In this document: positions 33,934-34,936 of the stretch, piece by piece
How the letters are laid out: every line of letters begins with the position of its first letter
Numbering within the stretch: position 1 is the stretch's first letter
Origin: Eledone cirrhosa
Lineage: Eukaryota
DNA: 64,000 nucleotides
Direction of reading: 5' to 3'
NCBI GenBank assembly: GCA_964016885.1
Contig: CAXHJY010000330.1
Coordinates: 1-64,000 of the forward strand
Translations under genes and position numbers: made by a program
Notes under the pieces: generated by a model
Told to the model about the DNA's origin: nothing
Database searches by the model: none
The model's input: the letters and a program-made list of their open reading frames with translations, nothing else

Positions 33934-34936
33934 CTACATTTTAAATTTATATTTATATTTAAAAGTTGAGTTCAATCTTTGTCTGCAGCAACTGAATAAA
34001 TTTGTCCGTAAATTAAGGGAGTTTTTAGATTTTAGTATAAAGAATATCTCCTCCGCGCAGAGGTCACATGTCTCAGAGGATGAATTAAAAGGAATCCCTC
34101 TTGAGACTATATTCCAAGCCGTCGAATATCCAACGTTATCATGCCTAAGTTGCCAGAGTAAGCCTGATAGTGATGTTGAAGATTTTTTTGCTTGGATCTG
34201 TGAAAGAATTCTTGTGGTTATTATAGCGAAGTTTAAATTCTGTCGAGGTGGAACCAACATAGTTAAAAGAATTTAAGTCCGTTTTAACAGTTGTATATTA
34301 TATTTTTAACTAAGCAATTGTTATTTAACGGACATTTAGATCTATCTCTACAGTTACATTTGTTAACTTGGATATTATTTATGCTATTATCGGTATTTTG
34401 GCTAGGTTTTAAATTCCTATTATTTATTCTATTAATATTTTGTGCTAAATTTTTGGTGGATGAGTAGGTTAATTTTATAGTATGTCTATTGAAAATTGAG
34501 TGATACCTATGTGTTCTAGGGAAGCGATTATCAAGAGCATTAAAAAATAGTTTAGCGATGTGGGTTTTAATGTTTAGTGAGAAAGGGGGGGGCAAACCAT
34601 ATTATATTCCTAGTTCTATTTCTTTTTTGGCTTTTGGAATTATTGTAATGCTTTCTATTATAGTTGTTAAAGTTGTTGCCGTAATTAAAATTGTTGTTAT
34701 TTTGGTTAGTTTGTCTATTATTATCTATGTACATAATTTTATCACTATATCCTGCTCTAGCTAACGCTTCATTGTAATACTAATAAAAAGATTTTCGACG
34801 AAAAACCCAGTATTACAATGAAGCGTTAGCTAGAGCAGGATATAGTGATAAAATTATGTACATAGATAATAATAGACAAACTAACCAAAATAACAACAAT
34901 TTTAATTACGGCAACAACTTTAACAACTATAATAGA
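33934..34936 (-). mobile_element. Decayed Penelope-like retroelement: RT thumb, Cys-rich linker and endonuclease C-terminus, with inverted 5' end
   Basis: YYNEALARAGY; PPFSLNIKTHIAKLF..FPRTHRYHSIFNRHTIKLTYS; CNCRDRSKCPLNNNCLVKNIIY; TSLSGLLWQL..CDLCAEE..LNLRTNLFSCCR; frame is broken and the GIY-YIG core appears deleted. Confidence 0.82.

Follow-up and report, generated by a model that had tools for sequence, protein, structure and literature searches.

The window, a 64,000-nucleotide stretch of an Eledone cirrhosa contig, carries a Penelope-like element (PLE) on its minus strand that runs from position 34781 down to at least 33590. The main copy (33934..34781, minus strand) is a 5'-truncated open reading frame (ORF) remnant, very probably of the Hydra clade, broken into four reading-frame pieces and matched by tblastn with its relatives at a best E value of 6.9e-36. 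These matches to PLE endonuclease relatives upheld the first-pass annotation, which had called a PLE remnant here. The four pieces match the profile of the relatives at positions 454-701 of 704 and contain the end of the thumb, an Asn-rich linker, a CxCX5C motif, a GIY-YIG endonuclease, and a stop near 33934. The reverse transcriptase (RT) core is absent and the thumb end alone is left, with the profile match starting at position 454. From the thumb to the WFxPP motif (34600-34740), the copy has 49 aa, 17 of them Asn, compared to 22 to 33 aa in 27 relatives. In this it resembles, on a smaller scale, the Asn-rich inserts described in PMC3846280.

The CxCX5C linker motif lies at 34332..34358 (minus strand) in the translation and is of the Hydra type as defined in PMC8557442. 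The endonuclease remnant (33976..34301, minus strand) lacks the CCHH motif, has CxxC before the conserved E, and, following the conserved N, reads CxQ rather than CxH, with the Gln one base from His. It shows IIY and YVG motifs, a single Cys between them, and downstream R, H, E, and N residues, and it aligns by eye with PLE endonucleases; its match to the Pfam GIY-YIG model (E 0.024) was under the cut-off. The body of the main copy has three frame breaks, near 34590, 34286, and 34183. Counting a fourth break, at 34800, three of the four amount to the change of a single base within a homopolymer; the copy may accordingly be younger than it appears, or partly miscalled. Copies of the family elsewhere stay in frame at three of the breaks of the window copy, though none was seen at full length.

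Downstream of the ORF lies a repetitive region (33590..33933, minus strand) with high depth to the edge of the stretch examined, which is likely the 3' untranslated region of this copy. Between 33590 and 33930, where the Hydra profile gave no match, subfamilies differ by indels of 1 to 15 nt and each strand has short open frames; a CTGA near 33923 is missing from other family copies. Neither a pattern search nor a hammerhead model found a hammerhead in 33300-33950, and the 3' end of the copy was not located. Four stretches resembling hammerheads, three of them within the 3' region and the other in the right flank, were discarded, since they gave neither a model match nor a stable fold.

At its 5' end, the element is folded back on itself. 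The left arm (34654..34781, minus strand), made up of the opening 128 nt of the main copy, and the right or outer arm (34809..34936, plus strand) are exact reverse complements with 0 mismatches in 128 positions, and complementarity ends at the arm limits in both directions. By comparison, exact inverted repeats in 30 dinucleotide shuffles of 33500-35075 reached 17 nt at most. Both arms match a profile of 27 relatives of at least 600 aa (E 1.4e-07 for the minus-strand copy in the left arm and E 0.003 for the plus-strand copy in the right arm), confirming the earlier statement that they are inverted copies of PLE coding sequence. Gene conversion is not needed to account for the perfect arms: at the arm positions among the 40 listed rows of 186 differences, the window agrees with the majority of contig set X1, and close copies exist. 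The outer arm is an inverted duplicate, and it stops mid-ORF within the Asn-rich linker. On the minus strand, the locus reads as flank, antisense element from +127 back to -27, and then sense element from 0 to the 3' end.

The 27-nt spacer between the arms (34782..34808, plus strand) is element sequence that lies upstream of where the main copy begins, and it is oriented like the outer arm. We draw this from one X4 contig (depth 64.8) that spans the spacer and arm continuously (34780-34936) and from loose ends at 34780 in X1 and X5 that extend into upstream element sequence, which by eye resembles the Hydra thumb helix of a published alignment. The first-pass annotation had given a peptide read through the spacer and right arm and had taken the spacer for upstream element sequence. 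The origin of the spacer stands, but in the window the arm is shifted by one base relative to the spacer, and the peptide requires a one-base frameshift at 34800, where an additional A is present in other copies (depth 3440 of 3454.7 in X1, 64.8 of 64.8 in X4, and 8.98 of 8.98 in X5); the peptide is therefore the reading of the family, not of the window. At the head-to-head junction, bases 34780..34781 suit the arm as well as the upstream element sequence and form a 2-nt microhomology, and the loose ends of other copies begin before 34780. No contig piece bridged 34781/34782 among the pieces listed (32 of 1497), and the junction is known from the assembly alone. Beyond the outer arm, a low-copy flank (34937..35075) that is outside the family (depth 15 to 81 in X1) and has no other match in the window separates the arm from a (TA)n tract. 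The 5' junction of the insertion adjoins non-TA sequence, with the tract 139 nt away, and no target site duplication (TSD) of at least 7 nt was found at this locus.

The family is abundant. We placed 1224 contigs of X1 on it, 320 of them at least 99% alike, and summed X1 depth drops from thousands to about 15 at 34940. It was also present in sequencing runs of other organisms (119 contigs in X5 and 16 in X7). The endonuclease piece as a query retrieved 1131 proteins at E≤0.001, and the CxxC-E-N-CxH motif was complete in 128 of the best 150 relatives. Full-length relatives carry RWK, DKT, and YRDD motifs (DKT or DKS in 26 of 27 long relatives); the Pfam GIY-YIG model matched weakly in 2 of 18 of the full-length ones. 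Where there was enough 3' room, a hammerhead core lay within 500 nt in 29 of 45 relatives.

Hydra-clade elements are described as having a C-terminal GIY-YIG domain, a CxCX5C linker motif, no CCHH motif, and a CxxC before the E, and as inserting into (TA)n (PMC8557442). The window copy shares the four protein features: its order on the minus strand is thumb, linker, endonuclease, stop, so that the endonuclease is C terminal. By eye, the fragments fit the Hydra rows of the published alignment and not the Penelope, Nematis, or Neptune rows. The motifs of the thumb, linker, and endonuclease pieces, with this alignment, make it very probable from the sequence that the coding copy is a Hydra-clade PLE. 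Naiad elements (Naiad/Chlamys) have an N-terminal endonuclease, whereas here the endonuclease follows the thumb and linker, and Neptune, Nematis, and Penelope/Poseidon elements have CCHH with two Cys inside GIY-YIG, which is not the case here; none of the 25 relatives with a readable GIY..YIG span has two Cys inside it. The copy departs from the clade in having CxQ for CxH, the 49-aa Asn-rich stretch, and no hammerhead found; the last point weighs against a clean assignment, but decay or loss of the 3' end could also explain it. Hydra-1_Obim is a different family, judged by an eye comparison of linker and endonuclease sequence. Of six short window motifs, four were absent from the PMC8557442 supplement and two matched unrelated places; the linker piece matched nothing when proteins were searched by words, and a PDB sequence search returned nothing relevant. 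What we describe is a new family of the Hydra clade with a published kind of structure, which adds one more family to a small clade and one more case of that structure.

Inverted 5' segments had been cited earlier as a known feature of PLE insertions, and this was borne out both in print and at related loci. PMC8557442 describes 5'-truncated PLE copies with an adjacent inverted segment, gives Penelope-13_HM, of the Hydra clade, as having a 5'-truncated inverted copy at its own 5' end, reports that canonical inverted copies reach near the 3' end, and calls the formation of PLE tandem and inverted structures undefined. We compared 80 Hydra-type loci from metagenome contigs. Among 52 rows of 5'-truncated, 3'-complete copies with upstream room, 13 had an inverted PLE segment at the junction; these represent 12 distinct junctions (L028 was counted twice), one of which joins two different families, and some of the other rows are pieces of one copy. 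Called manually, 5 of the 12 junctions have an outer segment whose start lies upstream of that of the main copy, 6 have it downstream, and in 1 the two are level. Outer segments ending within the ORF recur among these loci, and two of them, L004 (38-nt arms) and L028 (487-nt arms), combine overlapping arms, a spacer on the outer arm, and an outer end inside the ORF as seen at 34654-34936. We also observed junctions at or beside the linker SYSC motif in five loci (L034:2413-2496, L041:2154, L048:2824, L050:523, and L054:3285); the cause is either a hot spot of truncation or biased detection by the profile.

The window also holds several families of small elements in which a pattern search found type I hammerhead cores or parts of cores. 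A hammerhead model from 28 Hydra-type loci, drawn from 38 candidates after removal of the false row L001 and near-duplicates, found 13 window sites at E≤0.31, mostly in the B1 and B2 families, whose copies score E 0.0015 to 0.31. Rfam gave nothing at its gathering score, and the hammerheads were found by pattern and by the Hydra-type model. Head-to-head inversions, which served as comparators for the foldback, were found in three families. B1 has four: 6133..6570 (minus strand), with 167-nt arms, 1 mismatch, and a 17-nt spacer on the outer arm; 31482..31790 (minus strand), with a short overlap and a long spacer on the outer arm; 51149..51345 (plus strand), with zero spacer; and 55258..55505 (minus strand), which has no overlap and falls in the gap class. 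Overlap, zero-spacer, and gap junctions are thus all present within this one family. B2 has an inversion at 31035..31365 (plus strand) with the spacer on the outer arm. Family C has a zero-spacer inversion at 13004..13170 (plus strand) and one at 54574..54755 (plus strand) with a 15-nt spacer on the outer arm and the same outer end point as the 13004 copy.

The window inversions other than the foldback have mismatched arms and end points specific to each family. Three B1 outer arms stop at one base, an end point shared by the 31482 and 51149 inversions, and the fourth stops within a few bases, all beside (TA)n; B1 main copies extend about 87 nt past this stop. Both family C outer arms likewise stop at one base, and overall the outer arms of the small elements stop at a fixed site 80 to 100 nt short of the 3' end. 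These fixed outer ends correspond to the tail signature of PLEs, and so the small hammerhead elements look PLE mobilized in their own right. All six window junctions with a nonzero spacer (the foldback locus, 6133, 31482, 55258, 31035, and 54577) have the start of the outer segment upstream of that of the main copy (P = 0.03). The two zero-spacer junctions (in the copies at 13004 and 51150) lie at 13046/13047 and 51202/51203 and center on 2-nt palindromes (CG and TA). Four further structures (7262-7564, 31972-32239, 27164-27645, and 3595-3808) stand outside the polarity count, as their spacer orientation is unassignable.

Some further features of the small families were observed. Their tails, of about 80 to 100 nt (6133-6220, 31482-31569, 51256-51345, 54676-54755, and 32240-32340), are longer than the 30 to 40 nt quoted for PLEs. 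The outer arms of three B1 inversions (6387, 31607, and 55330-55333) begin within about 10 nt of one another, roughly 90 nt upstream of the hammerhead core, and these arm starts suggest a B1 template RNA with a preferred 5' end. The zero-spacer B1 junction (51196-51210) is at most 4 nt from the predicted hammerhead cleavage site, and a ribozyme-cut 3' product may have served as its template.

We favor, with slightly better than even confidence, a route in which both cut target strands prime reverse transcription and the two cDNAs are joined at their 3' ends into a head-to-head duplicate. At the foldback locus, one target strand would prime a cDNA from the 3' end of the element up to about 34781, and the other would prime a second cDNA from an internal site at 34936 to about 29 nt further upstream. 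The end of the second cDNA would anneal to the first through 2 nt and be extended, and gap filling would fix the palindrome. The small hammerhead elements would likely follow the same route, with the second cDNA starting from the fixed tail-less start site of each family. A purified PLE protein, from the PAc Poseidon element, cleaves and extends both target strands, and two internal RT starts define its tail (PMC11167929). Support for this route comes from the fixed outer ends, the mixture of overlap, zero-spacer, and gap junctions, the 2-nt palindromes, and the mixed polarity at related loci. Zero-spacer palindromes favor two cDNAs because two cDNAs can pair there, while a single strand cannot fold back. 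Several observations weigh against two-strand priming. The outer-arm spacer in 6 of 6 nonzero window junctions is predicted by fold-back and not by independent cDNAs; cDNA ends only 27 nt apart mid-ORF require a broken template or an RT stop, and the spacer hairpin is weak (11% of 817 element 31-mers are equally stable). Moreover, the outer arm stops mid-ORF at no known start site, no TSD was found that could speak for priming homology, two-strand priming was demonstrated for a Poseidon element and not for Hydra, and the foldback junction is seen in assembly only.

Self-priming of one antisense strand of the same element is a possible but doubtful route, close to the idea put forward in PMC3846280, where palindromes at PLE inverted junctions are read in this way. 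The first-strand cDNA would stop about 29 nt upstream, fold over a 27-nt loop, and prime the second strand, after which a nick at 34936 would open the hairpin. The short loop with 2-nt microhomology fits this route, as does the predicted polarity of the six nonzero window junctions. Also in its favor, of the 8 classed window junctions whose arms overlap or leave a gap, 4 have spacers of at most 17 nt, and no coincidence of two cDNA ends is required. However, the zero-spacer junctions at 13046/13047 and 51202/51203 are unable to fold back on themselves, 6 of the 12 related-locus junctions have the opposite polarity, the fixed outer ends fit the RT start sites of PMC11167929, and predicted fold-back pairing at the foldback locus is weak (pair probability, 0.01; +1.3 versus -1.3 kcal/mol). 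The foldback locus by itself cannot separate two-strand priming from self-priming. A snap-back of the R2 type does not fit, since it would leave the loop on the main copy and the spacer here is on the outer arm.

Another possibility, which we consider quite improbable, is that the inverted copy was once longer and a later deletion left the present outer arm, or that repair unrelated to insertion produced it. Long palindromes are unstable, and the arm seen here stops within the ORF, next to non-TA sequence, whereas canonical inverted copies run near the 3' end (PMC8557442). Against a later deletion, ORF-internal outer ends recur in the related loci, with the overlap-plus-spacer form in L004 and L028, and the flank at 34937-35075 is low copy and not the 3' end of the family; its low depth ruled out that it is such an end brought in by internal deletion. 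A long-read or assembly artifact is very improbable indeed. The perfect arms, the resemblance of three of the four frame breaks (single-base homopolymer changes) to long-read error, and the lack of a junction-bridging contig among those listed could be laid to one. However, the spacer is element sequence absent elsewhere in the locus, which fold-back of a read cannot supply, the same form occurs in unrelated metagenome contigs, and the other window inversions have the mismatched arms and family-specific end points noted above.

The first-pass annotation had proposed that coding PLE and small ribozyme elements share one geometry and that the coding PLE is a candidate autonomous partner. The shared geometry holds for the polarity of the inner junction (6 of 6 nonzero window junctions) but not for the outer ends, which lie at a fixed site beside (TA)n in the small elements and mid-ORF beside non-TA sequence in the coding PLE. 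The partnership was not sustained for this copy. With no RT core and three frame breaks, it is unable to be autonomous, although its family might be, and it has no 3' hammerhead match and no similarity to the small elements above shuffled controls. In a permissive comparison with 11 small-repeat stretches, the best match of the coding copy was 29.7 bits, a score reached or exceeded by 13 of 30 shuffles (25.4 to 42.5 bits), and blastn of 33300-35075 found no match elsewhere in the window (one such comparison covered 33400-35100).

That the coding family is the autonomous element mobilizing the small families in trans is therefore unlikely, in our judgment. The common inner junction, the high copy number with close relatives (320 of 1224 X1 contigs at least 99% alike), and the scores of B1 and B2 with the Hydra-type hammerhead model would suit it, as would the (TA)n targeting of Hydra elements (PMC8557442), which the small elements share, and the proposal that retrozymes are PLE derivatives (bioRxiv 10.64898/2026.07.22.740005). 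Against it are the lack of common sequence above shuffles, the 3' region of the coding copy without a hammerhead, and the passages of PMC3846280 in which cross-mobilization between PLE types was not seen in Adineta. Other donors also exist, as the window has several unrelated hammerhead families and a second Hydra-like remnant. This remnant (24300-24480, plus strand) is different and decayed, was recognized by linker motifs and a profile match (E 0.006), and is flanked by a TA-rich tract and a 65-nt tandem array. The small elements were probably moved by other PLE families with similar 3' ends. On a bolder reading, which we still place on the unlikely side, the window would be an in vivo record of a cDNA from the tailed end and a cDNA from the fixed tail-less site 80 to 100 nt upstream fused head to head with consistent polarity. 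The small elements would then be defined nonautonomous units with a favored 5' start, and Hydra proteins, perhaps those of the high-copy Asn-expanded family, would mobilize them in trans without shared end sequence.

The Penelope elements of Adineta vaga are presumably of the Penelope/Poseidon type, unlike the Hydra copy here. They share with it head-to-head inversion with junction palindromes (read there as self-priming) and Asn-rich inserts between RT and endonuclease, and their inverted pLTR is shorter than the direct one (PMC3846280). Their inverted units are pLTRs, whereas the arm here is mid-ORF, and their Asn inserts are hundreds of residues long, compared to about 20 here. In the PAc Poseidon system in vitro, the two internal RT starts that give the tail correspond to the pair of fixed 3' ends seen in the small families, but that tail is 30 to 40 nt and not 80 to 100 nt, and the joining of inversions falls outside the passages of PMC11167929 drawn on. 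R2 snap-back likewise leaves inverted element sequence at the 5' junction; from PMC11371274, its cDNA appears to fold back and then join the flank with the loop on the main copy. In L1 twin priming, both break ends are extended by RT and inverted junctions have 2-bp microhomology, as here, but L1 is a different retroelement class and the inverted duplications are of genomic DNA, not of element sequence (bioRxiv 10.1101/2024.12.14.628481). Non-LTR retrozymes are small noncoding repeats with type I hammerheads related to PLE ends, as here, and an origin of small hammerhead repeats from PLE ends has already been proposed (bioRxiv 10.64898/2026.07.22.740005). Retrozymes form tandem arrays, mainly in vertebrates, whereas the small elements in the window occur as dispersed monomers and carry inversions, none matching the coding copy. 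Two-strand priming and self-priming can be told apart when three coordinates are known for each insertion: where its inverted part starts, where that part ends, and where its main copy starts. We found no paper tabulating junction polarity for PLEs in a search that was thin on subscription journals, including older PLE papers. The E. cirrhosa genome appears to hold many such junctions and so offers a handle on how the inverted structures of PLEs form.

Other repeats in the window were noted. A SINE-like family, in which we found no hammerhead core, is abundant and occurs in tandem runs and inverted pairs (3584-3930, 5546-5750, 7564-7740, 28055-28223, 37985-38953, and 56889-57322). An element between (TA)n tracts at 35541-35730 (minus strand), 600 nt from the foldback, has a canonical Hydra-type hammerhead at 35551-35610 (E 0.005); it has no significant match to the coding PLE copy and has a partial copy at 51871-51925. 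An 80-nt tandem array at 25731-28030 is broken by the nested inverted structure at 27164-27645, which holds a hammerhead core (27374-27401, minus strand) and a (TA)n tract.
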